Source: Bacteroidales bacterium (lineage in GTDB: Bacteria; Bacteroidota; Bacteroidia; Bacteroidales; UBA12077). From it: a stretch of DNA of 64,000 nucleotides. The notes under the pieces were generated by a model. It was not told where the DNA came from and did not search any database. It worked only from the letters and a program-made list of their open reading frames with translations. Below are positions 1 through 32,542 of this stretch, one piece after another (the stretch's first letter is position 1; every line of letters begins with the position of its first letter). The position numbers were made by a program, and so were the translations under genes. Location: NCBI GenBank assembly GCA_028282785.1, contig JANQHE010000024.1, positions 73,612-137,611 of the forward strand. The letters run 5' to 3'.

Positions 1-1051
1 AGTAGATGCCAATATGAACACTCTTTCTTATGAACTAAAGGTTCATCTTCCTTCAGATGAAAAATCGGAGTACATTATAGGAATACAGGGTGAAGACAGA
101 AAAAACGTTAATCATGACGCCCCTGTGCAAGTAATTCCCGATGCAACTGTTAATGGATTTTCTTTATTTGCTTTTGCGCAACGGACAATTTTTGGGTGTT
201 TAAAAACACAGGGAGGAATTCGTTATGATCGTAGGATATTAAAAACAACAACAAGAGATAATAATGAGGAAATTAATAAAAAATATGGAAATATAAGTGC
301 CTCTTTTGGTACAACTTACACTTTAAATGAAAATATTCTGTTTAAAGTAAACTTAGCTTCTGCATATCGCACACCGAATATAGCTGAGTTAACACAAGAC
401 GGTTGGCACGGAGTGCGCTATGAACAAGGTGATCCAAATCTAAAGGCTCAGAAGAATTATGAAATGGACTTTAGTTTTCAACTTAATAATCAATACTTAC
501 GAATTGACGCTTCCGGATTTTACAATTACGTACAAGATTATATTTATATGGCTCCTACAAGTGATACTTTATCAACAGGAGATAAAATATACAGGCATTC
601 CCAGAGTAATGCTGTTCTTTATGGGGGAGATGTTTCTTTAGATTACATTCCGACTGATTGGATTCAATATCAAATTACATATTCTTATTTAAGGGCAAAG
701 AAACAAGATGGAAGCTATCTACCGTTCATTCCTCCCGGTAATTTGATACTTAATACCAAAGTAAAAAAGAAACAGTGGCTTTTTATGCAAAATACCTACA
801 TGCTGTTGGGAGTTGAAATTGTTGAAAAGCAGAACAGACCGGCAATGTTTGAGACAAAGACGGATGGATATTGTTTGTTTAATATTGGATTTGGTACAGA
901 AATACAGTTAGCAAGACAAGAAATTAATCTTGGCATATTCGTAAATAACTTGTTTAACGAAAATTATTATGACCATTTATCCACCTTAAAAGAATTAGGT
1001 TTTTATAATCCCGGAAGAAACTTAAGCGTCTTAGTTAGTATCCCTTTCTAA
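1..1051 (+). CDS. TonB-dependent receptor, C-terminal beta-barrel part (5' end outside window)
   Basis: Reading frame of ORF 14..1051 stays open to the window edge. Alternating beta-strand pattern, ASAYRTPNIAEL motif, and a C-terminal GRNLSVLVSIPF ending in an aromatic residue, as in TonB-dependent outer-membrane barrels. Confidence 0.75.
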   Translation, partial: VDANMNTLSYELKVHLPSDEKSEYIIGIQGEDRKNVNHDAPVQVIPDATVNGFSLFAFAQRTIFGCLKTQGGIRYDRRILKTTTRDNNEEINKKYGNISASFGTTYTLNENILFKVNLASAYRTPNIAELTQDGWHGVRYEQGDPNLKAQKNYEMDFSFQLNNQYLRIDASGFYNYVQDYIYMAPTSDTLSTGDKIYRHSQSNAVLYGGDVSLDYIPTDWIQYQITYSYLRAKKQDGSYLPFIPPGNLILNTKVKKKQWLFMQNTYMLLGVEIVEKQNRPAMFETKTDGYCLFNIGFGTEIQLARQEINLGIFVNNLFNENYYDHLSTLKELGFYNPGRNLSVLVSIPF

Positions 1052-1187
1052 ATGATATCTTTTAATAATAGATTAAAATTTGAAAACTAGTATTTAACGA
1101 AATTTATTTAGAATGATTAAAAATAAGTTGGATAATTAAAATATTAAAAATATATTTGCGTGCGCATACAATTTAAATTTACTGAAT

Positions 1188-1607
1188 ATGTTGAATACAA
1201 AATGTAGAACAAATTGTTTCTGGGAATTCCCTTTATGTAAGCTATATAGAAATGTAGGCTTTCATGCAAAAATTATGGGATTAACACAATTGCAAGCTAA
1301 TATACTTTTGAGTATCTATAAAAATCAACCGTTTAGTTTTGATGACTTCTCTAAGATAATAGAGCTTAATACGGATAGTTTGGGTGCTACAAAATACCTA
1401 TTTGGAGAACAATACATTACTATTAATGATAAATCTCAAAACATCATACAAGTGACCATAAAAGGAATAAATACATGCGAAAAAATTAATAGGCTATATA
1501 AGCAAAACAAAAATATTATGCAGGGCCACTTTACAAAAACTCAATTGGGAGAATTGAATAAATCATTTAAAATACTGGCATTTACTATTAAAAATCAAAA
1601 AGTATAA
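1188..1607 (+). CDS. MarR-like winged-helix transcriptional regulator (divergent)
   Basis: 139 aa. LTQLQANILLSIY...FSFDDFSKII...VTIKGINTCEKI follows the MarR pattern (helix-turn-helix plus wing). First gene of a co-directional operon. Confidence 0.5.
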   Translation: MLNTKCRTNCFWEFPLCKLYRNVGFHAKIMGLTQLQANILLSIYKNQPFSFDDFSKIIELNTDSLGATKYLFGEQYITINDKSQNIIQVTIKGINTCEKINRLYKQNKNIMQGHFTKTQLGELNKSFKILAFTIKNQKV

Positions 1608-1610
1608 ATC

Positions 1611-1955
1611 ATGGAAAAGAATTATAAAGAATTAAACGAGAGGATTAACTCTCTATTAGCAGAATTTGGTAAAGAAAATCAAGGTATAATGAAAGGCTTT
1701 ATGCAAATGCATAAAACCATGGATAACTCCGAAGCATTAAGCCCTAAAACAAAAGAGTTAATGGCTATTGCTATTTCTGTAGTAAAACAATGCGAGGGGT
1801 GCATTGCCTACCATATAAACAGGGCATTAAAATGTGGAGCTACCCGTTCCGAAATAACGGAAACAATTGGAGTATCTGTTTTTATGGGAGGAGGGCCTTC
1901 TTTGGTTTATGCCTCAATTGCTTTGAAAGCTTTGGGTGATTTTGAAAATGAATAA
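1611..1955 (+). CDS. carboxymuconolactone decarboxylase (AhpD-like) family protein
   Basis: 114 aa with the CMD-family CxxC motif (QCEGCIAYH). Starts 4 nt after the previous stop. Confidence 0.8.
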   Translation: MEKNYKELNERINSLLAEFGKENQGIMKGFMQMHKTMDNSEALSPKTKELMAIAISVVKQCEGCIAYHINRALKCGATRSEITETIGVSVFMGGGPSLVYASIALKALGDFENE

Positions 1956-2000
1956 GTTTTATTCGGCTAAAAGAATAAAGTTTATAAAATAGAATTTAAT

Positions 2001-5000
2001 ATGAAAACTTATAGTTTGGGAATAGATGTCGGGTATTCTTCAATAAAAGTAGTTTTAATAAATAATCTGGATGAAATAGAATACGATAATTATGTATTAC
2101 ACAAAAGTAAGATAAAGAAAACATTAGAAAGTATCCTACTTGATATATCCGGGAAATTCAAACTTTCATCAATAGTAACCGGAGCGATTACCGGTTCTGT
2201 TGGGAAACAGCTTTCAAATAAGTTATCAATAAAAAAGGTATATGAAGTTATCTCAATTATTGAAGGTTGCCGGTATTTAAATATAGAAGCAAAATCCATA
2301 ATAGAGATAGGAGGGCAAAGTGCAAGGTATATTACAGGTTTTAACAGTAGTAAAAAAAATGCTTTGAAAATATCCTCAAATAATGATTGTGCAGCAGGAA
2401 CCGGATCTTTTATAGAAGAACAGGTATCCAGGTTAAATATAAAGATTGAGGAATTTGCTTCATATGCTCAAAAAGCTTCCACTATACCACGTATAGCTGG
2501 CAGGTGCAGTGTTTTTGCAAAAACAGATATTATTCATCATCAGCAAGAAGGAGTGTCTTTTCAGGATATATTGAAAGGACTATCCTATGCAATAGTAAAA
2601 AACTACAAAAATGCTGTTATTAAAAGGTCACCTGTTGAAAATCCAATATTATTTATAGGTGGAGTGGCTCATAACCAGGCAATAGCTGATGCACTTAGGG
2701 ATGTGTTGGATAAAAGTGAAAAAGAACTTATCATCCCTGAATATTTTAGTCATGCTGCGGCTATTGGCACAGCTTTAATTGCTAAAAGAGAAAAGCATAA
2801 GCTCGTGTTCCATAGTATGGTTAGTGATTTCCTGTTTTTAGATGAGGTAGGTTCTCAGCAAATCAACGAAGAAACCTTACCGGCCCTGCGTTCTGTTGGA
2901 AATGATACCATTGAAAGCAAACATAGTTTACAAAATTCCTCCGGGAACATCACTGATGAAGGTTTCTTTCTAGGAATAGATATTGGTTCTACCAGCACTA
3001 ATTTGGTTTTAATAAATAAGGAAAAAGAAATTTCAAATTATAAGTATGTTAGAACCAGGGGAAATCCTTTAGAAGCAGTTTACGAAGGCTTCAAACAAAT
3101 TCAAACAGAGATAAATGGTAAAATCAACATTGTTGGAGTTGGTATAACCGGTTCGGGCCGCCATATGATCGGGAAGGTAATAGGCGCTGATGTAATTAAG
3201 GATGAAATTACAGCACAAGCCAAAGCAGCTGTTAAGTTTGTTCCGGATGTAGATACAATATTTGAAATTGGGGGCCAGGATTCGAAATATATAAGTATTA
3301 CCAATGGAGCCATTACAGATTTTCAAATGAATAAAATCTGTGCGGCCGGAACAGGTTCTTTTCTGGAAGAACAAGCAAAAAAGTTCAATATTCCACTGAA
3401 TAAACTTGGAGAACTAGCTCTAAAAGGCCGACATCCTGTTAATCTGGGGGAAAGATGTACCGTTTTCATCGAATCCAGTGTTGCATCAAGTCTCTCGAAC
3501 GGCAAAAAAACAGAGGATATAGTTTCGGGATTATGTTATTCTATTGCAAAAAATTATTTGCACAGGGTAGTTGGGCAAAAAAAGATTGGAAAAAAAATAT
3601 TACTGCAAGGAGGAATAGCCTATAATCAGGGAGTTGTTAATGCAATGCGAATATTAACAAAAAAGGATATAACCATCACCCCGTATTTTAGTGTTACAGG
3701 AGCCTATGGAGCAGCTTTAATTGCACACGAAGAAATAAAAGAAGGAAAAACAAAGTTTGTAGGATTTGAAAATCTAAACCAACTAACTCTTTCTGTTGAA
3801 AAACAAAGTCATAAAAACAAAAAATCCAATCTTGATAAATACAACAAAAAAATAGAAGAAATAATATTTGAGGACTATGCTAACTCAATTGATCAAAATA
3901 AAAAGACCGTAGGTATTCCCAGGGCGTTGTTTACTTATGGTATGTTTCCAATGTTCAATGCAATATTTAAGAGCCTGGGATTTAATGTTTTGTTGTCTGA
4001 GTGGAGTGATGAAAATACGATCAAACTCGCTCAGGAATTTGCTCTTGAAGAAACTTGTTTCCCGGTAAAATTAATTCTGGGGCATGTTGCTGAACTGGCC
4101 TCCAAAGGTGTTGATTATATCTTTTTCCCTGATCTGTATACAGGAAATCACTCGGGTTGTAAATCAAGACAAAGCTATGGTTGTGCATATATGCAATTAG
4201 CATATAAAATAATAAACCAAGCAATGGAATTAGAAAAAAAAGGGATTAAGATAATTGCTCCAACCATAGCATTTAGTCTTGGTAAGAAATTTATGGATAA
4301 ATCTTTTTTCTCAATAGGAGAAACTCTTGGTAAAAGTAAAGATGCAACTGAGTTAGCAATTAAAAAAGGTTTTGAAGCAGCACAACGCTATATGCAAACA
4401 ATTGAACTAAATGGTAAAAAAACAATTAAAGAACTTGATCAGAATAAAATAACTTTTGTGATCATATCTAAAATTTACGGTGTTTCCGACCCCGTACTAA
4501 ATTTGGGGATTCCCTCCAAATTAATGGATATGGGGTATCAAGTTGTACCATTTTTTGATTTACCCAAAGGTGCAAATGTTTCAAAAGAGCATCCAAATAT
4601 GTATTGGCCATTTGGACAACAAATACTTGAACCGGCATATTTAGTAAGAGAGCATCCTAATATTTACGCTATTCTGTTAACTCATCATGGTTGTGGCCCC
4701 GACTCCGTACTGATACACTATTTTAAAGAAATAATGGGTAATAAACCATATCTCAACATTGAGATAGATGAGCATGCATCGCAGATTGGTGTTAATACTA
4801 GAATTGAAGCATTTGTAAATAGCCTGAAAAGTAGTAAACAAAATACGCCAAGGGAATTAAAGACCTATTTGAAAAATATCAGCTATAATAATTTAAACAT
4901 TAAGAATAATTTAACGGACCTAAATCCGGAAACTAAGATTTACATCCCTAATGTTTATCCCTATTCGGATTTATTTAAAGAAGTTTTGATCCAAAAAGGT

Positions 5001-6005
5001 TTTGATACGGAAGTTCTTACAACAAATAGTCATACAATTGAGTTAGGGCGAAAGCATACAATAAACAATGAATATTACTCTCTGACTTCATTACTTGGAG
5101 ATTGCTTTAGTATAATTGATGGTAGTTATGACGATCAGAATATTTCATTTTTTATACCTCAGACAGAAGGAGCAGAAGTAGAAGGACAATACAACAGAAT
5201 ATTAAGGACAAAGTTAGATGAGAACAAACATAACAAAATTAATATTATCGCTCCCTATTTAGAGGATCTCATTAAAATAGAATTAAGTGAACTAAAACTT
5301 ATTTTTTACTGCATATTGTCCGGAGATATTATAAGAACTGCAAATCAGAAAGACAGGAATAAATACCTCTTACAGATTAAAAAACTGATTCGGAACAGAA
5401 ATCTGGATATCCTAAATCTCAAAGAAATTGCAAGAGATGTTTATAAAAGCGTAAGGAAAAAATCATATGCAAAGAGAATTTTAGCTATTGGTGAACCGAT
5501 GGTGTTATTTAATGATTTTTTAAATGATAATACATTTAAAACCATTGAAGAACAAAGTAACAAGGTTATTTATTCTTCCTTTTCAGAAACAATATGGGTT
5601 TTTTGGAAGGACCACATTACTACAAATAAAAAACTCGGTTCAGTTGCATTCAAAAATAGATTATTGTATTTGAAAGAGGATATGGAACAAATTTCTAAAC
5701 AATTAAAAGAAGAAAGTCCATTTACTCCAAATATAGATGATCTCATAAAAAAAGCAAATAAAACCATTGGATATTACGCCGGAGGTTTTGCACGTTACAG
5801 ACAAGCTAAGGCTCTGTGCAACTCTATAAAAATCGATGGAATTATTACAGCATCATCCCTTTATGAAAACACTGGAATTTCTCTGAATATTTTGCATAAA
5901 GGTTTTTCAACAGAGAATTCAAAACCGTTACTTAACCTGACTTTTGACGGGAATAGCAATGAAAATAATAAAAGTAAAATAGAGTCATTCATGTATTATC
6001 TATAA
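2001..6005 (+). CDS. BadF/BadG/BcrA/BcrD-type double ATPase (2-hydroxyacyl-CoA dehydratase activase-like) fused to a large C-terminal dehydratase-related domain
   Basis: 1334 aa. Two tandem ASKHA ATPase modules start at GIDVGYSSIKV and GIDIGSTSTNL. Each carries the cluster-ligand motifs DCAAGTGSF/RCSVFA and KICAAGTGSF/RCTVFI, followed by GG(V/I)A.NQ. About 700 aa of C-terminal extension. Confidence 0.8.
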   Translation: MKTYSLGIDVGYSSIKVVLINNLDEIEYDNYVLHKSKIKKTLESILLDISGKFKLSSIVTGAITGSVGKQLSNKLSIKKVYEVISIIEGCRYLNIEAKSIIEIGGQSARYITGFNSSKKNALKISSNNDCAAGTGSFIEEQVSRLNIKIEEFASYAQKASTIPRIAGRCSVFAKTDIIHHQQEGVSFQDILKGLSYAIVKNYKNAVIKRSPVENPILFIGGVAHNQAIADALRDVLDKSEKELIIPEYFSHAAAIGTALIAKREKHKLVFHSMVSDFLFLDEVGSQQINEETLPALRSVGNDTIESKHSLQNSSGNITDEGFFLGIDIGSTSTNLVLINKEKEISNYKYVRTRGNPLEAVYEGFKQIQTEINGKINIVGVGITGSGRHMIGKVIGADVIKDEITAQAKAAVKFVPDVDTIFEIGGQDSKYISITNGAITDFQMNKICAAGTGSFLEEQAKKFNIPLNKLGELALKGRHPVNLGERCTVFIESSVASSLSNGKKTEDIVSGLCYSIAKNYLHRVVGQKKIGKKILLQGGIAYNQGVVNAMRILTKKDITITPYFSVTGAYGAALIAHEEIKEGKTKFVGFENLNQLTLSVEKQSHKNKKSNLDKYNKKIEEIIFEDYANSIDQNKKTVGIPRALFTYGMFPMFNAIFKSLGFNVLLSEWSDENTIKLAQEFALEETCFPVKLILGHVAELASKGVDYIFFPDLYTGNHSGCKSRQSYGCAYMQLAYKIINQAMELEKKGIKIIAPTIAFSLGKKFMDKSFFSIGETLGKSKDATELAIKKGFEAAQRYMQTIELNGKKTIKELDQNKITFVIISKIYGVSDPVLNLGIPSKLMDMGYQVVPFFDLPKGANVSKEHPNMYWPFGQQILEPAYLVREHPNIYAILLTHHGCGPDSVLIHYFKEIMGNKPYLNIEIDEHASQIGVNTRIEAFVNSLKSSKQNTPRELKTYLKNISYNNLNIKNNLTDLNPETKIYIPNVYPYSDLFKEVLIQKGFDTEVLTTNSHTIELGRKHTINNEYYSLTSLLGDCFSIIDGSYDDQNISFFIPQTEGAEVEGQYNRILRTKLDENKHNKINIIAPYLEDLIKIELSELKLIFYCILSGDIIRTANQKDRNKYLLQIKKLIRNRNLDILNLKEIARDVYKSVRKKSYAKRILAIGEPMVLFNDFLNDNTFKTIEEQSNKVIYSSFSETIWVFWKDHITTNKKLGSVAFKNRLLYLKEDMEQISKQLKEESPFTPNIDDLIKKANKTIGYYAGGFARYRQAKALCNSIKIDGIITASSLYENTGISLNILHKGFSTENSKPLLNLTFDGNSNENNKSKIESFMYYL

Positions 6006-6033
6006 AAGCGGTAATTGGTTTAAAAAATAAATA

Positions 6034-6543
6034 ATGAAAAAAGGAAATAAAATGTTAACAACCACAATATTAATGGGCATCATAGCCCTAATCCTTACCA
6101 TATACTCATACGTTAAAGGGACTTATATTACCGGTTTAAATAATGCTTTTAAAACTATGCTAAGTATTTTACCGATATTGATCCTGGCATTTATAATTAT
6201 CGGGATGTTGCATAGCCTTGATATGGCAAATAATGTAAAAGCAATATTAGAAAATCAAACCGGAATAAAAGGAATCAGCATTGCAACATTAGGAGGTATG
6301 TTAACACCCGGGGGCCCATTTGTTGCCCTTCCGTTAGCAGCCATATTATTGAAATCAGGTGCAGGTATCGGTCATGTGGTTGCTTATACAACAGCTTGGT
6401 CAACCTGGGAGATAATGCGAACACCATTTGAACTAAGCTTTTTAGGATGGAAATATGTTTTAGTAAAATGGAGCTGCATCTTTATTCTACCCATTATAAG
6501 CGGATTAACTGCTCAATTATTATTCTCATGGATTAAATTTTAA
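6034..6543 (+). CDS. small polytopic membrane protein, half-size permease-like
   Basis: 169 aa with 4-5 hydrophobic segments. GGMLTPGGPFVALPLAAILLKSGAG resembles permeases of the COG0701/ArsP-like type, but this is a weak recollection. Confidence 0.45.
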   Translation: MKKGNKMLTTTILMGIIALILTIYSYVKGTYITGLNNAFKTMLSILPILILAFIIIGMLHSLDMANNVKAILENQTGIKGISIATLGGMLTPGGPFVALPLAAILLKSGAGIGHVVAYTTAWSTWEIMRTPFELSFLGWKYVLVKWSCIFILPIISGLTAQLLFSWIKF

Positions 6544-6554
6544 AACGATCAACT

Positions 6555-8339
6555 ATGTTTAAAAATAAGTCATTAAACTTTTTAATAGATATTTCAAAAA
6601 AAGGAAAATATCGTTTGGTTATATCAGGCATACTTATCTTTTTTAGTTCTATTTGTGCACTTGGGCCCTATTATATTACCTACTTAATTATCGATAAAAT
6701 AATACACCCTCCGTTTATCATGCACGACCTGTTGATACTTGGCGCTATTGCTGCCACGTTTATTGTCGGGCAGATGATCTTTTCAGGTATTGCAATGACC
6801 CAATCTCATATAGCTGCATATAATATTTTATTCGACTTACGTGTAGCTGTTGCTAATAAGTTAACAAAATTACCACTAGGTTATTACTCCGATACCAGTT
6901 CAGGGAAAATCAAAAAAATTATGATGGGGAATATTGAAGCAATTGAAGAATTTATAGCCCATAATTTAGTTGATTTAATTTCGGTTATTTTTCTTCCGGT
7001 TATCATTTTTTCATGGTTAGCTTCTCTAAATCTTACATTGGCGTTTTTAAGTATTTTCCCTGTTTTTCTTGGTGTAGCATTACAACGATTCAGGATGAAA
7101 ATAGAGGCAGGTAATATCCGCAAATTTTTCAAAATAAAATCAGATATGAACACTACAATTATTGATTTTATAAAAGGAATGCCTGTAATTAAAGCATTTA
7201 ATTTGTCGGTTTTTTCTTTTAAAAAATACAAAGAAGAAGCTGACAGATATAGTCAGTACTGGATTAATATGAATAAAAATGCGGCAGCATTTTTTGCAAC
7301 GTATGCTCTTTTGATGGATTGCGGTGTATTGATATTATTGCCGGTGGGAGGTTATATGTACGCAGTTGGTAAAATCACACTTTCTGCTTTTTTAATGTTC
7401 ATGTTTATTGGAATAGGGCTCTCCCGTTTTATGAAACAGCTTACCAACTTTGGTTCAAACCTAACCCAGATTTTTAAAGGTGTTGATGAAATAAGGGAAA
7501 TTTTTAAAACAAAAGAAATTGTTAACAACGGAAAAGTTTCCAAACTGGAAAATTATGATGTGGAATTTAACCATGTTTCATTTTCTTATGGTGACCAGCT
7601 CGTACTCGATGATGTAAATTTTAAATTAAAACAGGGAACAATTACGGCATTGGTCGGACCGTCCGGAGCCGGAAAAACTACTATTGCCAGGTTAATACCG
7701 CGCTTTTGGGATGTCACAAAAGGAGAAATTACCATAGGAAATCATAACCTAAAATCGATTCAGGGCGATGAATTAATGAAGAATGTTGGTTTTGTGTTCC
7801 AGGATATTTTCATGTTCAATGATACTGTAATTGAGAACATCCGCATGGGAGACACATCTGTTTCAGAAGAAAAAGTAAAAGAAATTGCCAAACAGGCCCA
7901 GGCTGATGAATTTATTCAAGGATTAAAAGACGGATATCATACGGTTATCGGCCCTACAGGTGTTCATCTGAGTGGAGGAGAACAACAACGCATTGCCATC
8001 GCCCGGGCGTTGGTTAAAGATTCACCTGTTATTGTGTTAGATGAGGCAACCAGTTATGCAGATACAGAAAATGAAGATAAAATTCAAAAAGCACTGAATG
8101 CACTTCTAAAAAACAAAACCGTAATAGTAATTGCGCACAGGCTCTCTACCATTCAAAATGCCAATCAGATACTCTATATCGAAAAAGGAAAAATCAGGGA
8201 ACAAGGTAACCACAAACAATTAATCAATGAGAACGGTAGGTACAAGCAAATGTGGGATCTGCATATGGATGCAGCTCAGTGGGGGATTAAACAAACCGGG
8301 GGATCATTGACAAACAGAAAGGAGGAAGTAACATGTTAG
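6555..8339 (+). CDS. ABC transporter permease/ATP-binding protein (exporter half-transporter)
   Basis: N-terminal 6-TM domain. Walker A GPSGAGKTT, signature LSGGEQQR, Walker B VIVLDEATS, H-loop IAHRLST. Confidence 0.9.
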   Translation: MFKNKSLNFLIDISKKGKYRLVISGILIFFSSICALGPYYITYLIIDKIIHPPFIMHDLLILGAIAATFIVGQMIFSGIAMTQSHIAAYNILFDLRVAVANKLTKLPLGYYSDTSSGKIKKIMMGNIEAIEEFIAHNLVDLISVIFLPVIIFSWLASLNLTLAFLSIFPVFLGVALQRFRMKIEAGNIRKFFKIKSDMNTTIIDFIKGMPVIKAFNLSVFSFKKYKEEADRYSQYWINMNKNAAAFFATYALLMDCGVLILLPVGGYMYAVGKITLSAFLMFMFIGIGLSRFMKQLTNFGSNLTQIFKGVDEIREIFKTKEIVNNGKVSKLENYDVEFNHVSFSYGDQLVLDDVNFKLKQGTITALVGPSGAGKTTIARLIPRFWDVTKGEITIGNHNLKSIQGDELMKNVGFVFQDIFMFNDTVIENIRMGDTSVSEEKVKEIAKQAQADEFIQGLKDGYHTVIGPTGVHLSGGEQQRIAIARALVKDSPVIVLDEATSYADTENEDKIQKALNALLKNKTVIVIAHRLSTIQNANQILYIEKGKIREQGNHKQLINENGRYKQMWDLHMDAAQWGIKQTGGSLTNRKEEVTC

Positions 8340-10060
8340 AAGTTATAAAACTAATAGCAGGGAAATATCGTAGCCGTATGGTGAGGGTTACCCTTATATC
8401 GGTTTCAGAAGCTATTTTTGGGGCTGTGCCATTTGTCGTATTGTATTTTCTTTTATGCAACGTTATCGACAATACATTTACCGTACAAAAACTTTGGACC
8501 TATATATATATTATAGCAGGTAGCGCTATTTTTCGAATGTTGTTTTCATACCTGAGTGTTACCCGTTCGCGTGCAGATGGAACAAATATGGTTAAAGACT
8601 TAAGGTTAAGGTTGGGCGAACATATCCGAAAACTTCCTTTAGGTTTTTTTTCCAGCCACGATACCGGTGAATTGTCAAATAAAACACTGGATAATGTTAA
8701 TAAAGTGGAACAAATCATTACCATGCTTTTACCCGAGTTTATTTCAACACTTGTGCTGAGCATGTTAGTAGCTACAGGTTTGTTTTATATCGACTATCGA
8801 ATGGCAATTGCAACCATTATAACCATGCCGGTTGCTTTGAGCCTGCTTATTTGGGCAAAAAAAATAATGCATGTAAGAGGAAAAGCGTTGTATCAATCTT
8901 CATCGGATTTAGCAAATGGTATTATCGAATTTGTTAGTGGTATCAAGTTTATCAAATCTTTTAATAATTCTCAGAAGAAATTTGATGACCTGGTTGAAAA
9001 AATGGACGATTTCAAAAAGCGAAGCTTGAAAGTTGAAGGCACTTTAAGTCCTGTTATGACATTGTCTGGTATCTCAATTGATTTTGGATTGGTCATGTTG
9101 ATATTGATGGGCTCATATTTTATTGTTGGTGGCAGCCTGAGTGGAAAGACATTCATCATTTTTATTATAATCAGTTCCCGTTTTTTTGAGAATCTTAAAA
9201 CCATATCGATCAATTATGTGAAGATTAGATACCTGTTAATTGCCGGTCAATCCATTCAAAATTTATTCAATGAAAAACAACTTTCAGGAAAGAAATCTGA
9301 CTTGGATTTAAAAAAGCAAAATATTGTTTTCAACAACGTTTCGTTTGGATATAATGGAACAAAAGTATTAAAGGAGATTAACGTTACTATTCCTCACAAT
9401 TCATTAACTGCATTGGTTGGCCCTTCCGGTTCAGGAAAATCTACAATGGCAAACCTTATAGCAAGGTTCTATGATGTGGACAATGGTGATATTTGTATTG
9501 GACCGTATAACCTTAAAAATGCAGAACCGGGAAGAATTCTTCAACAGGTAAGCATGGTATTTCAAAAAGTTATCCTTTTTAAAGATACCATATATAACAA
9601 TATTAAGGTAGGTAAAAATGATGCAACCGAACAAGAGGTGATAAATGCAGCCAAAAAAGCAAACTGTCATGATTTTATTTCAAAACTGCCGAATGCTTAT
9701 GAAACCATGGTTGACGAAAATGGAACAAACCTCTCAGGGGGAGAACAACTCAGGCTTTCAATTGCACGGGCGATGTTAAAAGATGCCCCTATTGTTCTAC
9801 TCGACGAAGCCACTTCTTCTCTCGACCCTGAAAATGAGTTTTTTATACAAGAGGCTATTTCAAACTTGCTGAAAAACAGAACAGTTGTAGTTATTGCTCA
9901 CCGCCTTAAAACCATTAAAAATGCAGATAAAATAATTGTTCTTAATGATGGCCGGATTTATGAAGAAGGAACCCATCGCGATTTATTGACAAAACAAGGT
10001 TTATATAGTAAAATGTGGCAAACCCAGGAAAGTACGGTTGGCTGGCAGCTTACAAACTAA
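8333..10060 (+). CDS. ABC transporter permease/ATP-binding protein (exporter half-transporter, partner of 6555..8339)
   Basis: Start overlaps the upstream stop by 7 nt. Walker A GPSGSGKST, signature LSGGEQLR, Walker B IVLLDEATS, IAHRLKT. Confidence 0.9.
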   Translation: MLEVIKLIAGKYRSRMVRVTLISVSEAIFGAVPFVVLYFLLCNVIDNTFTVQKLWTYIYIIAGSAIFRMLFSYLSVTRSRADGTNMVKDLRLRLGEHIRKLPLGFFSSHDTGELSNKTLDNVNKVEQIITMLLPEFISTLVLSMLVATGLFYIDYRMAIATIITMPVALSLLIWAKKIMHVRGKALYQSSSDLANGIIEFVSGIKFIKSFNNSQKKFDDLVEKMDDFKKRSLKVEGTLSPVMTLSGISIDFGLVMLILMGSYFIVGGSLSGKTFIIFIIISSRFFENLKTISINYVKIRYLLIAGQSIQNLFNEKQLSGKKSDLDLKKQNIVFNNVSFGYNGTKVLKEINVTIPHNSLTALVGPSGSGKSTMANLIARFYDVDNGDICIGPYNLKNAEPGRILQQVSMVFQKVILFKDTIYNNIKVGKNDATEQEVINAAKKANCHDFISKLPNAYETMVDENGTNLSGGEQLRLSIARAMLKDAPIVLLDEATSSLDPENEFFIQEAISNLLKNRTVVVIAHRLKTIKNADKIIVLNDGRIYEEGTHRDLLTKQGLYSKMWQTQESTVGWQLTN

Positions 10061-10072
10061 ATATTACTAATT

Positions 10073-10831
10073 ATGTTAAAAATTAATAATCTTCATGTAA
10101 ATATCGAAAATAAAGAGGTGTTGAAAGGAGTAAACCTGGAAATTCCTCACAATGAAGTACACTCCTTATTTGGGCCTAATGGATCAGGTAAAAGCGTTTT
10201 AATCTCTACAATTATGGGATATCCTGAATATGAAATTACCGGTGGTGAAATATTATTCAACGGGCAAAATATTAACCAACTAAGCATTGATGAAAGGGTT
10301 AAGCTTGGTATTGGGGTTTCCGAACAACGCCCTCCCACAATAAAAGGTGTAAAATTAAGAAACCTGATCGAATTACTGATGCCAGGGGAAATACAGGATG
10401 AAACATTCAGGAAGGGAATGTTAGAGCGATTTAATATGGATAAGTTTCTGGATCGAAACATAAATGATGGCCTTTCCGGTGGAGAAACAAAAAAGTCGGA
10501 ATTATTCCTTTTAATGTTGGCTAGGCCAGAGTTTCTTATTCTTGATGAACCAGATTCCGGAGTCGACCCTGAGCATCTTAAGAAAATAGGAGCAATGATA
10601 AATGAAACATTACAAAAAAAAATCCAGGGAAATGAGTTGTGTAATCCCTATGGAAGGAATTCAGGGTTGATAGCAACACATTCTGCTGTAATCTTGGAAT
10701 ATGTCCATACTGATAAGGCTCATATCATGCTTGATGGGAAAATACACTGTAGTGGAAATCCTGCAGTTATGATGGATCAAATAAAATCAAATGGCTATAG
10801 TTATTGTATTAATTGCCACCAAAATATATAG
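10073..10831 (+). CDS. sufC: SufC-like Fe-S assembly ATPase
   Basis: MLKINNLHV...EVHSLFGPNGSGKS...GYPEYEITGGEILFNG...LSGGETKKSE...LILDEPDSGVD follows SufC closely. The tail is atypical and contains CINCH. Confidence 0.75.
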   Translation: MLKINNLHVNIENKEVLKGVNLEIPHNEVHSLFGPNGSGKSVLISTIMGYPEYEITGGEILFNGQNINQLSIDERVKLGIGVSEQRPPTIKGVKLRNLIELLMPGEIQDETFRKGMLERFNMDKFLDRNINDGLSGGETKKSELFLLMLARPEFLILDEPDSGVDPEHLKKIGAMINETLQKKIQGNELCNPYGRNSGLIATHSAVILEYVHTDKAHIMLDGKIHCSGNPAVMMDQIKSNGYSYCINCHQNI

Positions 10832-10842
10832 GAGTACATGTT

Positions 10843-12048
10843 ATGAGTGATTTTTTAAATAAAGATAATAACATAGGAAAGATAAATATCGATTATTCCG
10901 AATTTTCACAAATTGAGAATGAAACAAAAGCAATAAACTCAATTAGTGAACTAAAAGAAGATGAAATAGAAACTTTACATTCAGTTGGGATCAATTTTCA
11001 AGATTACTCTGATACTGGAAAGTTTCTTATGTATGGAGTGGATGTTTTTTCATTAACTCCAAAAATTCCGGGAGTAGAAATAATTCCATTAAAAGCAGCA
11101 TTATTAATTTATCCGGAAATTAAAGAAAAGTATTATTTTAAAGCTGTTAATAAGGATCAGGATGAATTTACTAAAACAGCTTTTGAAAAAGAACAGAACG
11201 GATATTTTATCCATGTTAAAAAGAATGTTAAAGTAAAAGATCCATTACATACTGCATTGTTTATGCATCGGGAAATGAGTACCATGTGTATCCATAATAT
11301 TGTAGTATTAGAAGAAGGTGCGCAGCTACATTTAATTACCGGGTGTGCTTCTGGATGTACTATACAAGGAGGGTTACATATAGCTGTAAGTGAGCTATTT
11401 GTAGGTAAAGGAGCCAAATTAATTAGTACAATGATACATAACTGGGGCCCTGACTTCGTTGTGCAGCCCAGAACGGCAACTATAGTTGAGAAAAGTGGGA
11501 CATTTGTTAGTAATTATTATTCTGTAAAGCCTCCTAAAGTTATTCAAACTAATCCGTTTACCCACTTAAAAGGAAAAAATTCCAATGCAAAATACATGAC
11601 AGTAATTGCATCTTTACCAGATACCTATAACGATATTGGAGGAACGGTACTTATGGAGGGAGAAAATTCAGGTGCTGAACTTGTTGCAAGGGCTGTAAAT
11701 CATGGTGGTACAGTTATTCAAAATGGTTTATTAATAGGGGCCGCAAAAAATGCGAGAGCCCACGTCGATTGCTCGGGGTTAATGTTGAGCGATAGGGGTT
11801 ATATAGAAGCTATTCCCGGACTAAGAGCAGTACACCCTGATGCTCGCATGTCACATGAAGCCGCGATTGGCAAAATTGACATTGGAGAAGTAAATTATTT
11901 ACAGTCAAAAGGGTTAGATGAAATGCAAGCTATTGCACTAATAGTTAGAGGGTTTCTTGATATTGGGATTGAAGTAGAAGGGCTCGAACCTGAACTTGAA
12001 AAAACCATACAGGAAATTGCTGAACTTTCAGGGCATGGAGAAGAATAA
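10843..12048 (+). CDS. SufB/SufD-family Fe-S assembly scaffold protein
   Basis: C-terminal SHEAAIGKIDIGEVNYLQSKGLDEMQAIALIVRGFLD matches the SufB/D signature. The ORF track starts at TTG 10813. ATG 10843 follows an AGGAG and the sufC stop, so I prefer it. Confidence 0.75.
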   Translation: MSDFLNKDNNIGKINIDYSEFSQIENETKAINSISELKEDEIETLHSVGINFQDYSDTGKFLMYGVDVFSLTPKIPGVEIIPLKAALLIYPEIKEKYYFKAVNKDQDEFTKTAFEKEQNGYFIHVKKNVKVKDPLHTALFMHREMSTMCIHNIVVLEEGAQLHLITGCASGCTIQGGLHIAVSELFVGKGAKLISTMIHNWGPDFVVQPRTATIVEKSGTFVSNYYSVKPPKVIQTNPFTHLKGKNSNAKYMTVIASLPDTYNDIGGTVLMEGENSGAELVARAVNHGGTVIQNGLLIGAAKNARAHVDCSGLMLSDRGYIEAIPGLRAVHPDARMSHEAAIGKIDIGEVNYLQSKGLDEMQAIALIVRGFLDIGIEVEGLEPELEKTIQEIAELSGHGEE

Positions 12049-12076
12049 TTTAATAGCAGAATAAATATTATTAACA

Positions 12077-12697
12077 ATGAGAAATAAAATGAAATGTAGA
12101 CAAGAAGATCCAAGAGATTCTTCTTTACAAAAAACTAAGAGAAAACATGGACCGACAAGTACCCATTTACATTCTCCGGAAACAGTCTTTAAAGAAATAA
12201 AAATTTTAAACGGAGATATCTTTCTAGATATAGGGTGCGGAATAGGTGAGTATTCTATGTTTGCATCAAATTTAGTTGGGGAAGCAGGGAAAATTTATTC
12301 TCTGGATATTAATGAAGTGGTTATAGAAAATCTACAAAATGAGATCAGAGACAAAGGCATATATAATATGGAAGCTTTTGTTGCAGATATAACTGAAATA
12401 ATACCTCTGGAAGATCAGAGCGTTGATATATGCTTCATGGTTACTGTTTTACACTCAATTAATTTGAGCGAATATGAAGAAAAAATATTCAACGAAATTC
12501 GCCGAGTTTTAAAACCTAATGGTAGGTTAATTACGATTGATTGTAAAAAAGAACTGTCACATTTTGGCCCTCCTGCGCATTTAAGAATATCAGAAAAAGA
12601 ATTAATTGACATGGCGGCTAAATATAGTTTTAAAAATACAAACTATACCGACCTGACATATAATTATATGCTTCAGTTTGATGTGTTAAAACCATAA
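12077..12697 (+). CDS. class I SAM-dependent methyltransferase
   Basis: Motif I FLDIGCGIGEYS, post-I YSLDIN, motif III LKPNGRLI. 206 aa. Confidence 0.75.
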   Translation: MRNKMKCRQEDPRDSSLQKTKRKHGPTSTHLHSPETVFKEIKILNGDIFLDIGCGIGEYSMFASNLVGEAGKIYSLDINEVVIENLQNEIRDKGIYNMEAFVADITEIIPLEDQSVDICFMVTVLHSINLSEYEEKIFNEIRRVLKPNGRLITIDCKKELSHFGPPAHLRISEKELIDMAAKYSFKNTNYTDLTYNYMLQFDVLKP

Positions 12698-12711
12698 AAA
12701 TTGAATAGAAA

Positions 12712-14238
12712 ATGGCATACATTCAAAATTGGCAAGACAGAATCATTAAACAAGATGAAATTGAAAAATACTTGATTAATGGAAAAGATTTTATCGATGA
12801 GAATAAAATTACGACTCACTTAGAAACAAATAAAAATCCGGATAAAAATAAAATCAGGGATATAATCCAAAAAGCAATTTCAATTGAACGGCTTGAACCT
12901 AACGAAGTGGCATCACTTTTAAATGTTACCGATAATGAATTGTGGGAAGAAATATACGAAGCGGCAATTATTATTAAACGAAAAGTTTATGATAACAGAA
13001 TTGTATTTTTTGCTCCTCTCTACTGTTCTAACCTATGTGTTAATTCATGTTTGTATTGCGGATTTAGAAGAGAAAACGGTAAAATTGACCGCAGGTTACT
13101 TAACATGGAGGAAGTAAAAAACGAAACTCGTGCTATAACCAGGGTAGGACATAAAAGGATGATTATTGTTTTCGGGGAACATCAGTTTAGCGATATCGAT
13201 TATATGATAGAAGCTATCCAAAATGTTTACTCGGTTAAAGAGAAAGCTCAGAATAACGATAAAATGGGAGAAATTCGCAGGATAAATGTTAACGCAGCTC
13301 CTATGGAAATATCGAAACTTAAAAGGCTTTATAATGCAGGTATAGGAACCTACCAGGTTTTTCAGGAAACATATCATAAACCAACGTATAACTTGGTTCA
13401 TCCAAAAGGCATTAAATCAAATTATCGCTGGCGCCTTTACGCTCTTCACAGAGCTATGGATGCCGGAATTGATGACCTTGCAATTGGAGCGTTATTTGGG
13501 ATCTATGATTGGAAATTTGAAGTAATGGGATTACTTTATCACGCCATTGATTTAGAAAGACAATTTAACATTGGCCCTCATACCATTTCGTTCCCAAGAT
13601 TAACACCCGCTATTGATTCTGATTACAGCGCAAACTCCAAATACCTTGTTAACGATAATGATATGAAAAAACTTGTCGCTGTACTTCGATTAGCAGTACC
13701 TTATTCAGGATTAATCTGTACGGTAAGAGAAAAGCCGGATATCCATATGGAATTATTAAAGATAGGTTGTACACAGACCGATGCTTCCAGTAACATTGGT
13801 ATAGGCGGATATACGGAAGCGATGCAAAATGAAGCAATACATCAAAAAGAATATCTGAAAAATGGCAAGAATAAAGGTCAGTTTACTTTAAACGATAACA
13901 GAAGTTTAGATGAAATGATACGAGAAATAGCTAAACTTGGAATGATTTCTTCATTCTGCACAGCCGGTTATCGTTGTGGTCGTACAGGAGACAAAATAAT
14001 GAGTCTCTTAAAAACCGGTACCGAAGGTAAATTTTGTAAGTTAAATGCGGTACTTACATATAAAGAATTTTTAGATGATTATGCTTCGGAAGAAACACGT
14101 GTTATAGGTGAAAAGATAATTATAGATGAACTTGAGGAAATAGAGAAAATGCCATTTTATAAAAAAGGGAAACTATATAATAATTTCATTGAGAAGTACA
14201 TTAAAATTAGTGGTGGAGAAAGAGATATTTATATATAA
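12712..14238 (+). CDS. HydG-like (ThiH/HydG family) radical SAM tyrosine-lyase-type enzyme with C-terminal cluster domain
   Basis: RIVFFAPLYCSNLCVNSCLYCGFR (CX3CX2C at nt 13036-13059) and GHKRMIIVFGEH. C-terminal QFTLNDNRSLDEM...SFCTAGYRCGRTGDKIM...FCKLNAVLTYKEFLDDY parallels the HydG auxiliary-cluster domain. Confidence 0.8.
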   Translation: MAYIQNWQDRIIKQDEIEKYLINGKDFIDENKITTHLETNKNPDKNKIRDIIQKAISIERLEPNEVASLLNVTDNELWEEIYEAAIIIKRKVYDNRIVFFAPLYCSNLCVNSCLYCGFRRENGKIDRRLLNMEEVKNETRAITRVGHKRMIIVFGEHQFSDIDYMIEAIQNVYSVKEKAQNNDKMGEIRRINVNAAPMEISKLKRLYNAGIGTYQVFQETYHKPTYNLVHPKGIKSNYRWRLYALHRAMDAGIDDLAIGALFGIYDWKFEVMGLLYHAIDLERQFNIGPHTISFPRLTPAIDSDYSANSKYLVNDNDMKKLVAVLRLAVPYSGLICTVREKPDIHMELLKIGCTQTDASSNIGIGGYTEAMQNEAIHQKEYLKNGKNKGQFTLNDNRSLDEMIREIAKLGMISSFCTAGYRCGRTGDKIMSLLKTGTEGKFCKLNAVLTYKEFLDDYASEETRVIGEKIIIDELEEIEKMPFYKKGKLYNNFIEKYIKISGGERDIYI

Positions 14239-14346
14239 ATTCTTTTCTAATCAATTTATTATTGTGTTATTATAAGCTATTTGAACAGGAGAAATCACAA
14301 TTTTTATAAGGAAATTTTGGTTTTTAAAAAAAACTAATTATTTTTG

Positions 14347-14365
14347 TCAACCAATCGGTTGGTTA
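14347..14365. promoter_or_regulatory. candidate TetR operator, copy 1 (TCAACCAATCGGTTGGTTA)
   Basis: Imperfect palindrome 13 nt upstream of the tetR ATG. 17/19 identical to the copy at 14978..14996. Confidence 0.4.
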
Positions 14366-14377: not shown

Positions 14378-14959
14378 ATGCCAAAAATTGATGGATATTT
14401 AACAAAAGAAAAGATTTTAAATGTTGCTGAAAAATTATTTTCTGAAGTAGGTTACGATGCTGCAAGTATCAGCACAATATCAAAATTAGCAGGAATAAAT
14501 AAAGCAACAATATATTTTCATTTTAAAAATAAGCAGAGTGTTTTACACGAATTATTCTTTAATATGATTGAGCAAATGGAAAACAGGCTACTGCCTGTTG
14601 AAGAATCCGGGCTTAATTTAAAGGATAAACTTAGAAAAGAAATAGATTTTTTAAGGGAAAAGAAAGATATAATTTCTATTCTTTTAATGGAATCAATTAA
14701 GACCAACACCAGGGATGATTCACTTTTCCAGATTGCTTATTCAGAGATTTACAATAAAAAAAGCAGATTAACAGAATTAGCAAATTCTAAAAAGAACTTG
14801 TTCCTTGCTCATGAATTTTTTACCGGTTTTATACCAATATTAAACTTTGTTGTGCTTGAAGATAAGTACCGGAATTTTTTTAAGCTAGACGAAGAAAGTG
14901 TAATTGATAACTTTATCGATGTTATAATAAAGTCTCATTATAATACACATATCATATAA
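14378..14959 (+). CDS. TetR/AcrR family transcriptional regulator
   Basis: N-terminal HTH: ILNVAEKLFSEVGYDAASISTISKLAGINKATIYFHFKNK. Confidence 0.85.
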   Translation: MPKIDGYLTKEKILNVAEKLFSEVGYDAASISTISKLAGINKATIYFHFKNKQSVLHELFFNMIEQMENRLLPVEESGLNLKDKLRKEIDFLREKKDIISILLMESIKTNTRDDSLFQIAYSEIYNKKSRLTELANSKKNLFLAHEFFTGFIPILNFVVLEDKYRNFFKLDEESVIDNFIDVIIKSHYNTHII

Positions 14960-14977
14960 ATTTTTTTAAATTTTAAA

Positions 14978-14996
14978 TCAACCGAACGGTTGGTTA
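14978..14996. promoter_or_regulatory. candidate TetR operator, copy 2 (TCAACCGAACGGTTGGTTA)
   Basis: Lies between the tetR stop and the next gene. Contains the AACCG-AA-CGGTT palindrome. 17/19 identical to copy 1. Confidence 0.4.
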
Positions 14997-15010
14997 TAAA
15001 AAATAGCAAC

Positions 15011-15217
15011 ATGAAAAAAATAATAACAATCTTATTAATGATCTCAACGATAGGGATACTGTCAACAGGTATTGCAATACCTGAAGGTGATAACCCGGAT
15101 ACAGCATTATCAGAATTGCATAGTATATTATCTCTTCTATTTAGCATTTGTCTTTTTATACATGTAAAAAAACATTTTAAATCATTCATTCATTCTTTTA
15201 AAATCTTAAAAAGATGA
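15011..15217 (+). CDS. small membrane protein, unknown function
   Basis: The ORF track begins at TTG 14990. ATG 15011 gives MKKIITILLMIS... with two hydrophobic helices. The stop overlaps the next start. Confidence 0.4.
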   Translation: MKKIITILLMISTIGILSTGIAIPEGDNPDTALSELHSILSLLFSICLFIHVKKHFKSFIHSFKILKR

Positions 15218-15660
15218 ACGTATTAGTTAAGTCCCCCCCGCTATACTTTTTTGGGAGTATTTTTTTATGTTTGGTGGGTTATTTTATTATTCCATCAGCA
15301 AAGCTTTCTCTCTTCCCTTTTAATTTATTGGGTTTCTTACTTATTATATCCGGTTTAATAATCTTAAGGGGAGCCTCAATGATCTTTAATGAAAAAGGAA
15401 CCACTTTTATATTGGAAAAACCAACAAAACTTGTTAAGGAAAGATATTTTAGAGTAAGTCGAAATCCTATGTATTTGGGTAGCTTAATATTTATAGCAGG
15501 AATCTCTTTACTATTACCCAGCTTTATTGGATTTGCTTCAATTCTTCTGTTTTATTTAGCAATAAATTTTTTGTGTATCCCATCTGAAGAAAAGTTAATG
15601 GAGAAAACATTTGGGAGCGAATATCTTGATTATAAAAAAAATGTACGAAGATGGATTTAA
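15214..15660 (+). CDS. isoprenylcysteine carboxyl methyltransferase (ICMT)/phospholipid methyltransferase family membrane protein
   Basis: 4 TM segments. VSRNPMYLGSLIF and C-terminal EEKLMEKTFGSEYLDYKKNVRRW are typical of this family. Confidence 0.7.
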   Translation: MNVLVKSPPLYFFGSIFLCLVGYFIIPSAKLSLFPFNLLGFLLIISGLIILRGASMIFNEKGTTFILEKPTKLVKERYFRVSRNPMYLGSLIFIAGISLLLPSFIGFASILLFYLAINFLCIPSEEKLMEKTFGSEYLDYKKNVRRWI

Positions 15661-15926
15661 AAACAAAAAACGAACTTAAAGAAATGGATACCGAAATAAC
15701 GGATCTACCCATAATTGATTTGAGAAAATGTAGCGGGTGCAACAAATGTATAATTGCATGCGATCACAATGCTTTAGAATTAATTGATATTAATAAAGAG
15801 AGAAATAAACATGGTTTTTTCGCATGGAAAAAACTTAAAGCTGTTATAAAATATCCTATAAATTGCATTGGGTGTAAAGCTTGTTACTCAGTATGCAAGC
15901 ATAAAGCAATAAAATTTAAAAATTAA
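15651..15926 (+). CDS. 4Fe-4S dicluster ferredoxin-domain protein
   Basis: Two CxxCxxCxxxC-type motifs: CSGCNKCIIAC and CIGCKACYSVC. Confidence 0.8.
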   Translation: MDLKTKNELKEMDTEITDLPIIDLRKCSGCNKCIIACDHNALELIDINKERNKHGFFAWKKLKAVIKYPINCIGCKACYSVCKHKAIKFKN

Positions 15927-15937
15927 AATACGGAAAA

Positions 15938-19039: not shown

Positions 19040-19089
19040 GATATATTAGATTTTGTAAAGTATTATGTTTTCCAATTTTATTTTGAGAT

Positions 19090-20841: not shown

Positions 20842-20856
20842 ACGTTATATTTTAGT

Positions 20857-20872
20857 GTATACACTGTATACG
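20857..20872. promoter_or_regulatory. candidate MarR operator (GTATACACTGTATACG)
   Basis: GTATAC..GTATAC motif 16 nt upstream of the ABC start codon. Related to the sites at 20952 and 21494. Confidence 0.4.
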
Positions 20873-20951
20873 TTTATGTTAAAAAAATTGATCTTTATAT
20901 TTTATTGCTAATCCTTTCAAAATAGTAAAGCTTACATTTGAATATCTATTT

Positions 20952-20970
20952 GCGTATATGGTATATACGC
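20952..20970. promoter_or_regulatory. candidate MarR operator (GCGTATAT-GGT-ATATACGC)
   Basis: Perfect 8-bp inverted arms around a 3-nt centre, between marR and the ABC genes. Confidence 0.45.
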
Positions 20971-21024
20971 TCCAAAGATTAAAAAAGCCTGATTAACAGG
21001 CGAACATTGTTTACGAAGCTTAGC

Positions 21025-21471: not shown

Positions 21472-21493
21472 AACTATCAACAATTTCAATAAG

Positions 21494-25206: not shown

Positions 25207-25215
25207 ATAATTTTA

Positions 25216-28270: not shown

Positions 28271-28271
28271 T

Positions 28272-29753: not shown

Positions 29754-29759
29754 ATTGAA

Positions 29760-30092: not shown

Positions 30093-30094
30093 TT

Positions 30095-31082: not shown

Positions 31083-31168
31083 TTCGTTTAAAGAATCATT
31101 TTAATTGATAAACATATGTTAAAATTAATTGTTTAATTTTCTAATAACAATTATTAATGGAAATTATC

Positions 31169-32518: not shown

Positions 32519-32542
32519 TGATAATCTTCATGTAACCTTGAC

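Follow-up and report, generated by a model that had tools for sequence, protein, structure and literature searches.

The window analysed here, 64,000 nt of contig JANQHE010000024.1 from a Bacteroidales bacterium, carries a string of co-directional genes in which a gene for HydG, a radical S-adenosylmethionine (SAM) enzyme of the hydrogenase system, follows genes for an activase fusion, a permease, two ATP-binding cassette (ABC) exporter halves, a SufC-type ATPase (SmsC), a SufB-type scaffold (SufB*) and a methyltransferase. We give about an even chance (roughly 0.5) to the reading that a canonical hydG has been joined here to the 3' end of a bacterial Fe-S supply cassette based on the minimal SUF (SMS) system, and that HydG is supplied by this cassette.

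HydG is canonical

Judged by its sequence, the window HydG is a canonical HydG. In the search against HydG and ThiH family models suggested by the initial annotation, it passed the NCBIfam equivalog TIGR03955 (433.6 bits; cut-off 312.15) and failed the ThiH model TIGR02351 (253.6 bits; cut-off 380). ThiH has about 370 aa and lacks the C-terminal cluster domain, whereas the window protein, with 508 aa, has the extra C-terminal domain. Residues 25-507 aligned with Thermoanaerobacter italicus HydG (4WCX; 4e-130), the radical SAM motif is C109-VNS-C113-LY-C116 (CX3CX2C), and H277 is aligned with the 'YHA' histidine of 4WCX, which is the dangler-iron ligand in the T. italicus structure.

The auxiliary-cluster cysteines, C416-x5-C422-x19-C442 (CTAGYRCGRTG...FC; 13957-14037 of the window), cover the same 26-residue span as the classical CX2CX22C motif, with the second cysteine shifted by three residues. 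The CX5C motif (CTAGYRC) was present in 119 of 119 full-length top homologues and in all 86 fetched loci, including those linked to HydA/E/F; among HydG representatives at 50% identity, seven were CX5C and 30 were CX2C. Because the motif is common to HydA/E/F-linked homologues, the CX5C variant marks one large, genuine HydG clade. The idea that CTAGYRC marks a non-canonical paralogue was dropped, as all hyd-linked relatives carry it. To our knowledge, all biochemically studied HydGs are of the CX2C type.

All 156 positions conserved in at least 95% of 57 reference HydGs (those adjoining hydA, hydE, hydF or TM1266) were kept in the window HydG. Its sub-clade, hereafter clade iv, is distinguished by only six signature residues, all in variable columns. 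Clustering of the genes around the 86 fetched loci indicated that relatives at 54-74% identity adjoin TM1266 (26 loci), group A6 HydA with NuoE/F-type subunits (24) and HydF (20), and in many of these loci HydE is a neighbour as well. The 80 HydG loci from GTDB came from 80 different assemblies, so that genomes in this clade normally have a single HydG. As every conserved feature of the hydrogenase-linked HydGs is kept, tyrosine cleavage and assembly of the Fe(II)(Cys)(CO)2(CN) synthon on the auxiliary cluster's dangler iron are to be expected of the window HydG. The initial annotation had seen a 'HydG-like' enzyme outside the hydrogenase system; the position inside the canonical HydG clade, the TIGR03955 match and the 156 retained positions speak against this. 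Its further proposal of a pathway to a product other than the H-cluster gains no support from the enzyme itself, a canonical HydG with unchanged active-site residues.

The SufC/SufB pair resembles the archaeal minimal SUF system

Archaeal SMS systems form [4Fe-4S] clusters from iron and free sulfide, with no cysteine desulfurase. It is strongly indicated that the window SufC/SufB pair is a bacterial scaffold of this minimal SUF/SMS type. The best PDB relatives of SufB* were 4DN7 (4e-78) and then Methanocaldococcus jannaschii SmsB MJ0034 (1.5e-20), and it was 22-23% identical to canonical SufB. SufB* failed the SufB equivalog TIGR01980 (151.9; cut-off 346.4) and also the SmsB model NF052511 (164.5; cut-off 650), which is a narrow 'exception' model. 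Residues C168, C310 and H338-E339 were invariant in 112 homologues; C168, C310 and E339 are the equivalents of Escherichia coli SufB C254, C405 and E434, and H338 is that of SufD H360. In SufB* proteins, the equivalents of C405, E434 and H360 are essential, and substitution of the C254 equivalent (C108 in M. jannaschii) had a modest effect (10.1101/2024.03.20.586028). The Cys-to-His spacing of 28 is that of M. thermoacetophila (C313/H341), which belongs with A. fulgidus to the Group-1 SufB* proteins (10.1101/2024.03.20.586028). The sulfur source of minimal SUF/SMS is sulfide and not cysteine (10.1101/2024.03.20.586028, PMC12192291).

The SmsC-type ATPase matched SufC 2D2E (6e-45) and MJ0035 (1e-38) in the PDB and reached 195.7 bits with TIGR01978, below the cut-off of 212.8. 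Its C-terminal cysteine triad (residues 226-248; 10748-10816 of the window) was conserved in 12 related loci and matches the [4Fe-4S] ligands C218/C239/C242 of M. jannaschii SmsC (PMC12192291), so that bacteria, too, appear to have the SMS assembly site. With the functional SufB* residues and the SmsC triad present, the earlier view of the pair as an Fe-S scaffold type was borne out. A second SUFBD gene (SufD) was not found in the 64-kb window, nor was a class V aminotransferase among about 45 window open reading frames (ORFs) scanned. A canonical SUF system (SufBC2D) was rejected on the TIGR01980 score below cut-off and the lack of SufD.

The cassette is conserved and probably coupled to HydG

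The eight-gene order activase-permease-ABC-ABC-SmsC-SufB*-methyltransferase-HydG was found in two other Bacteroidales genomes, namely locus L083 (HydG 80% identical) and, behind a divergent AraC gene, a 4.86-Mb genome (L099/L100; HydG 72%); in L084, SufC-SufB*-HydG was retained. These copies were found by exact-protein look-ups. A tblastn search of the operon proteins against the 80 GTDB loci gave no conservation, clade iv not being among those species representatives. Conservation of the neighbourhood in related genomes, which the initial annotation had set as a test, was thus complete for this order in L083 and L099/L100 and partial in L084.

In all six clade-iv HydG lineages TM1266 was absent, and HydG lay in or beside SMS-module genes. 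Three arrangements were seen: HydG ends the eight-gene string (window, L083, L099), directly follows SmsC-SufB* (L084), or stands in the order TonB-dependent receptor (TBDR)-p148-HydG-...-methyltransferase (L085/86). Module genes occupy both flanks of HydG in L083 and L085. That adjacency persists through three arrangements at 70-80% HydG identity points to selection on co-expression, which argues for a real coupling between HydG and the SMS module.

Other copies of the module add genes for an ApbC/Mrp Fe-S carrier (284 bits), a 312-aa radical SAM protein, DUF4491, a TBDR and PepSY_TM. The ApbC/Mrp (NUBPL) gene, absent from the window, lies between the ABC genes or just after the module (L090 4024-4947, L091 12536-13402, L102 6380-7285). 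The p148 family (148-159 aa; three conserved cysteines in PxC, LPCP and SPxCG) is TudS-related, with 68 bits to NF045597, below the cut-off. Its copies (L085 9511-9957, L087 11270-11749, L091 11186-11647, L102 18301-18747) recur beside SmsCB, TBDR and methyltransferase genes, and none is in the window. The p148 protein is a candidate desulfidase that might act as sulfide donor for SMS. Because the recurrent identifiable partners are Fe-S proteins, the cassette points to Fe-S biogenesis rather than to metalloid detoxification. A literature search yielded no description of the cassette or of its linkage to hydG.

A supply of clusters and iron would make sense for HydG, because the enzyme exports iron and cysteine and because HydG, HydE and HydF have their clusters maintained in vitro by the carrier NfuA, which also supplies the dangler iron (PMC12501116). 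HydG loses one iron and one cysteine per synthon and carries two clusters labile to oxygen and turnover; in the proposed mechanism, a co-transcribed SmsCB scaffold could keep it loaded with clusters and iron. The synthon would pass to HydE, HydF and HydA encoded elsewhere in the genome. We guess that the archerase-dehydratase fusion might feed low-potential electrons and that the ABC pair, half-permease, methyltransferase and AhpD might handle a sulfur or redox by-product.

HydG phylogeny and the distribution of hydrogenase genes

In a neighbor-joining tree, the window HydG grouped with those of L083, L084 and L085/86 as clade iv, to which P0008/L099 was assigned by identity. Clade iv is sister to clade iii, nine HydGs of Bacteroidales/Prolixibacteraceae, with 100% bootstrap for clade iii, clade iv and their union; branch lengths in clade iv were unremarkable. 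In clade iii, TM1266 lay immediately upstream in seven of nine, and hydA/E/F were nearby in none. In other Prolixibacteraceae, a HydG that is more distant comes right behind hydCBA. It is normal in Bacteroidota for hyd genes to be scattered.

Several observations weigh against the supply of HydG by the cassette. The cassette occurs without HydG in other phyla, and for this reason HydG is not needed for cassette function. An Ignavibacteria metagenome-assembled genome holds the same seven genes and AraC without HydG, and a metagenome scan with SufB* gave nine loci. Marinilabiliaceae JC017 has activase-SmsC-SufB*-p148, and in a spirochaete the ABC pair stands beside SmsC-SufB*. The single eleven-gene pathway of the initial annotation would accordingly break into at least two units, as the upstream seven genes occur without HydG in other phyla. 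The absence of hydrogenase genes nearby, which it had also reported, was reproduced: tblastn gave no homologue of HydA, HydF or TM1266 in the 64-kb window, a search of the window with its own HydG gave no HydE-like second copy, and Pfam found no hyd gene in about 35 further window ORFs. In the six clade-iv lineages, hydA, hydE, hydF and TM1266 were all missing within 10 kb of HydG. Because hyd genes are dispersed in Bacteroidota, the absence of hydA/E/F from the 64-kb window is weak evidence.

Among the HydA matches listed (at least 76% identity), the only module-bearing genomes were two of 3,977,863 and 7,442,309 bp, both without a clade-iv HydG. The first is complete (3.98 Mb) and combines hydCBA with the SMS module, with no clade-iv HydG at the site, and no HydG of at least ~62% identity turned up for it. 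Across TBDR and p148, it shares about 95% identity with L085. Relative to this genome, L085/L086 have an insertion between the TudS-like p148 and the methyltransferase (L085 9511-14628 vs L102 18301-19377) that comprises HydG, a stop-riddled p148 duplicate, a BT_3928-family gene and GTP cyclohydrolase II, with transposases nearby. At this site, hydG was recently gained or lost. The clade-iv HydG of the L085 lineage may be an acquired extra copy, and because of this the idea of a product other than the H-cluster is kept alive at low probability.

Alternative explanations

The alternative that survives best, although we consider it unlikely, is that, in some ancestor, hydG came to lie at the tail of an operon unrelated to it and was carried along, with the two doing separate jobs. 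The existence of the cassette without HydG and the position of hydG away from it in clade iii would fit, and in these few, related lineages shared ancestry explains part of the synteny. However, selection would seem to be needed for an adjacency that outlasts three rearrangements, with HydG identity down to 70%; hydG follows after a gap of 14 nt with no terminator ahead of it, which implies co-transcription; and cluster and iron supply offers a direct biochemical rationale.

Rather unlikely, in our view, is a sharpened form of the idea in the initial annotation, namely that clade-iv HydG is an accessory paralogue travelling with the SMS module and passing its synthon, or CO, CN or dehydroglycine, to a non-hydrogenase acceptor. 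The dehydratase-like half of the activase fusion and the SmsCB scaffold would be candidate acceptors, and what results might be exported, or might be a cofactor of organometallic or modified Fe-S type. TM1266 disappears and SMS-module neighbours arrive at one and the same point, the base of a clade with 100% support; module genes flank HydG on both sides in L083 and L085; presence of HydG is polymorphic when compared with a close relative in which HydCBA is already found; and no hyd genes lie near any clade-iv member. On the other side, there is no clade-specific substitution at conserved positions (the six signatures fall in variable columns), branch lengths are unremarkable, and the cassette offers no substitute for HydE and HydF, both required for synthon use. 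In addition, Ignavibacteria and others have the full cassette with no HydG, a scattering of hyd genes is usual in Bacteroidota, and all 80 GTDB matches have one HydG locus per assembly. In its boldest form, clade iv would be a second HydG, accessory, horizontally mobile and outside the hydrogenase pathway, whose Fe-CO/CN unit, or CO/CN derived from tyrosine, goes to a partner encoded in the SMS-archerase cassette, so that a new organometallic Fe-S cofactor arises in anaerobic Bacteroidota. We regard this as distinctly improbable; if true, a hydrogenase-independent HydG would be of much higher interest.

Very improbable is a role of the upstream genes in metalloid or organometal detoxification by reduction, methylation and export (ArsM/ArsP/SAO type), with SufCB and HydG as bystanders: Haft and Gwadz connect organometallic chemistry with exporters of the ArsP family and with double-cubane proteins that depend on an activase, and there are weak NCBIfam likenesses of the methyltransferase to the arsenite methyltransferase subfamily PRK11873 (74.1 bits), of AhpD to an 'arsenosugar biosynthesis-associated peroxidase-like' model (45 bits) and of the permease to SaoE (26 bits), but these scores are far under the cut-offs (263, 120 and 325), the permease lacks a Cys pair and CSC motif, the methyltransferase is a bare 206-aa Rossmann domain, the fusion has neither the seven-Cys double-cubane motif nor an NF040772 match, no ArsR, ArsC or Acr3 is nearby, and the invariant partners across genomes are the Fe-S proteins SmsCB, ApbC and the TudS-like protein. 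An ArsM/ArsP organoarsenical system as such was rejected on the PRK11873 score (74.1 vs 263) and on the permease, which has TPGGPF and no Cys pair; ArsP carries such a pair, and ArsM has As-binding cysteines.

Layout and boundaries of the gene string

Ten co-directional ORFs occupy 1188-14238 on the + strand (Table 1), with successive gaps of 3, 45, 28, 11, -7, 12, 11 (or -19 with a TTG start), 28 and 14 nt. Eleven genes had been counted in the initial annotation, and the intergenic gaps are too small for another. Its domain assignments proved correct in Pfam/NCBIfam profile searches. Regarding the overlaps it had described, that of ABC1 and ABC2 (8333/8339) is real, and that of sufC and sufB exists only if the alternative TTG at 10813 is used as the SufB* start; ATG 10843 gives the 401-aa database protein (P0121) and the 11-nt gap. 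Its interpretation of the ten-ORF string as one transcription unit is a reasonable reading, the genes being co-directional with tight gaps and no internal terminator standing out.

Table 1. Coordinates of the genes and boundary elements in the window
Feature	Coordinates	Strand	Characteristics
TBDR, C-terminal part, upstream neighbour	14..1051	+	Pfam TonB_dep_Rec_b-barrel 7e-29
Candidate operon promoter	1151..1158	+	TATATTTG; Bacteroidetes-type -7 motif (TAnnTTTG); 30 nt 5' of first ORF
139-aa ORF	1188..1607	+	No significant Pfam, NCBIfam or PDB match
AhpD/CMD-family redox protein	1611..1955	+	C61-E-G-C64 motif; PF02627 5.8e-20, TIGR00778
Activase ('archerase') fusion, 1334 aa	2001..6005	+	Two BcrAD_BadFG ATPase domains, DUF2229, HGD-D dehydratase-like half
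Half-size ArsP_1-family permease, 169 aa	6034..6543	+	PF03773 5.4e-11
ABC1, ABC exporter half-transporter (TMD-NBD)	6555..8339	+	PF00664, PF00005
ABC2, ABC exporter half-transporter	8333..10060	+	PF00664, PF00005; 7-nt overlap with ABC1
SmsC/SufC-type ATPase	10073..10831	+	Walker A G34PNGSGKS, H203, C226-x18-C245-x2-C248
SufB*/SmsB-type scaffold, 401 aa	10843..12048	+	PF01458 1.3e-34
Class I SAM methyltransferase, 206 aa	12077..12697	+	PF13847 1.9e-23; PDB 3DH0 4e-23
HydG, 508 aa	12712..14238	+	TIGR03955; 4WCX alignment
Next-unit boundary, ahead of TetR	14339..14364	+	TATTTTTG (-7-like; TAnnTTTG at 14339-14346), then perfect palindrome AACCAATCGGTTGGTT
TetR gene	14378-14959	+	TetR_N 2.7e-15; starts 139 nt downstream of HydG

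The TBDR gene ends 136 nt ahead of the first ORF. Contig L103 has it at full length (739 aa), and the window protein shares 40% identity with the L085 receptor encoded in front of p148-HydG. The TAnnTTTG motifs on both sides of the string agree with the proposed unit boundaries, with a motif count in the window not above chance. Scans of the window for sigma-70 promoters and terminators, which are unsuited to Bacteroidota, stayed at chance level, and an Rfam search of the whole window gave no match. The palindrome AACCAATCGGTTGGTT probably serves as operator for TetR and opens a unit of its own.

This TetR unit (14378-16687) encodes TetR, a 68-aa membrane ORF, a PEMT-family methyltransferase, a 2x[4Fe-4S] ferredoxin and a 249-aa ORF without assigned family. 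A PEMT/ICMT-family membrane methyltransferase gene lies just 3' of HydG both in the window (15214-15660) and in L083 (11611-12168), with weak similarity (29% over 68 aa).

Genes upstream of SmsC and the cassette methyltransferase

The 139-aa ORF, which starts at 1188 or at an ATG at 1275, gave a single, sub-threshold Pfam hit, to DUF3568 (E 0.0087; 16.6 bits, cut-off 23.2). Inspection of its sequence revealed neither signal peptide nor lipobox, and an AlphaFold single-sequence model was unusable (pLDDT 39). It was paired with the AhpD gene in L103 and L104 (TARA and Logan contigs of the same organism). A guess that it is a MarR-like winged helix found no support.

The activase fusion matched PF01869 (4.8e-73, in two stretches), PF09989 (3.4e-55) and PF06050; its ATPase domains match TIGR00241 (303 bits) and carry the Cys pairs Cys130/169 and Cys447/486. 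The cysteines of its C-terminal half are 686, 720, 728, 898, 1035, 1104 and 1273. Assignment to DCCP/DCCP-R was rejected, since NF040772 gave no match and the spacing of the seven-Cys [8Fe-9S] motif is absent. Orthologues with 60-65% identity head the cassette in L083, L087 and L088, and a PDB sequence search with the C-terminal 734 aa returned no relative. The half-permease, with TPGGPF and neither Cys pair nor CSC motif in its sequence, has orthologues in L083, L088, L090, L099 and L102. ABC1 orthologues in L083, L088 and L090 were 81-83% identical, and those of ABC2 81-85%. The methyltransferase belongs to a family specific to the module, in which C119, C156-K-K and FGPP are invariant (alignment A1, eight module copies).

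Other genes of the window

A second heterodimeric ABC exporter pair with a MarR regulator (17291-21489, - strand) faces the operon and is 32-34% identical to ABC1/ABC2. An Mrp/Mbh-type multisubunit antiporter is encoded at 25216-30092, and around it lie four tandem-domain universal stress protein genes and PsiE (24298-37000, 46317-47204). A 530-aa ORF without Pfam match is followed by genes for CoA-transferase A/B, a class III aminotransferase and thiolase (39729-45314), which could be an amino-acid fermentation block.

Comparison with known systems

The SAO locus described by Haft and Gwadz, which combines SaoE efflux with double-cubane proteins, likewise places an ArsP-family permease by an activase-dependent Fe-S reductase, in strict anaerobes. 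In contrast, the window lacks SaoL/P/B/A, selenoproteins and the CSC motif, and its permease is half-size. With the activases of dehydratases and benzoyl-CoA reductases and with DCCP-R, the window fusion shares two BcrAD_BadFG domains, each with a [4Fe-4S]-bridging Cys pair, and a dehydratase-family half. It differs from DCCP/DCCP-R in lacking the seven-Cys motif and, for the C-terminal 734 aa, any PDB relative. Long activase-dehydratase fusions have been noted in the FldB/C family (PMC7317905).

Work on minimal SUF/SMS has until now concerned a two-gene system of archaea (M. jannaschii, M. thermoacetophila, A. fulgidus; 9H78, 4DN7). The window likewise has two genes, SufC and SufB*, with no SufD, SufS, SufE or SufU within 64 kb, and shares the essential SufB* Cys/His/Glu residues, the SmsC triad and the Group-1 spacing. 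Unlike the known systems, the window type is bacterial (Bacteroidota, Ignavibacteriota and Spirochaetota contigs) and its pair is embedded in a conserved multi-gene cassette with the archerase fusion, ABC exporters and methyltransferase; cassettes of relatives also hold ApbC, the TudS-like protein, a radical SAM protein and a TBDR. We know of no cassette partners described with SMS. As inputs of electrons, sulfur and iron that SMS is missing, the ATP-driven reductase fusion, exporters and methyltransferase, and the ApbC, TudS-like protein and receptor of relatives, are concrete candidates.

The proposed supply of HydG follows the same logic as NfuA-assisted HydG turnover, in which an Fe-S carrier or scaffold supplies the dangler iron and maintains the clusters. 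NfuA differs from SmsCB in being an unrelated housekeeping carrier, for which the paper reports no genetic linkage to hydG (PMC12501116); delivery by SmsCB is what we infer here. The repeated linkage to hydG could provide a genetic handle on how the sacrificial iron and clusters of HydG are reloaded in vivo.

HydG itself has the CX3CX2C motif, the TIM barrel with BATS domain, the three-Cys C-terminal domain and the aligned histidine of the T. italicus (4WCX) and C. hydrogenoformans (4RTB) enzymes. It carries CX5CX19C where these have CX2CX22C, a trait common to the whole hyd-linked clade, and this CX5C auxiliary motif marks a large, unstudied group of HydGs. Whereas classical HydG genes are surrounded by TM1266, hydE, hydF or hydA, the window HydG adjoins an SMS cassette.

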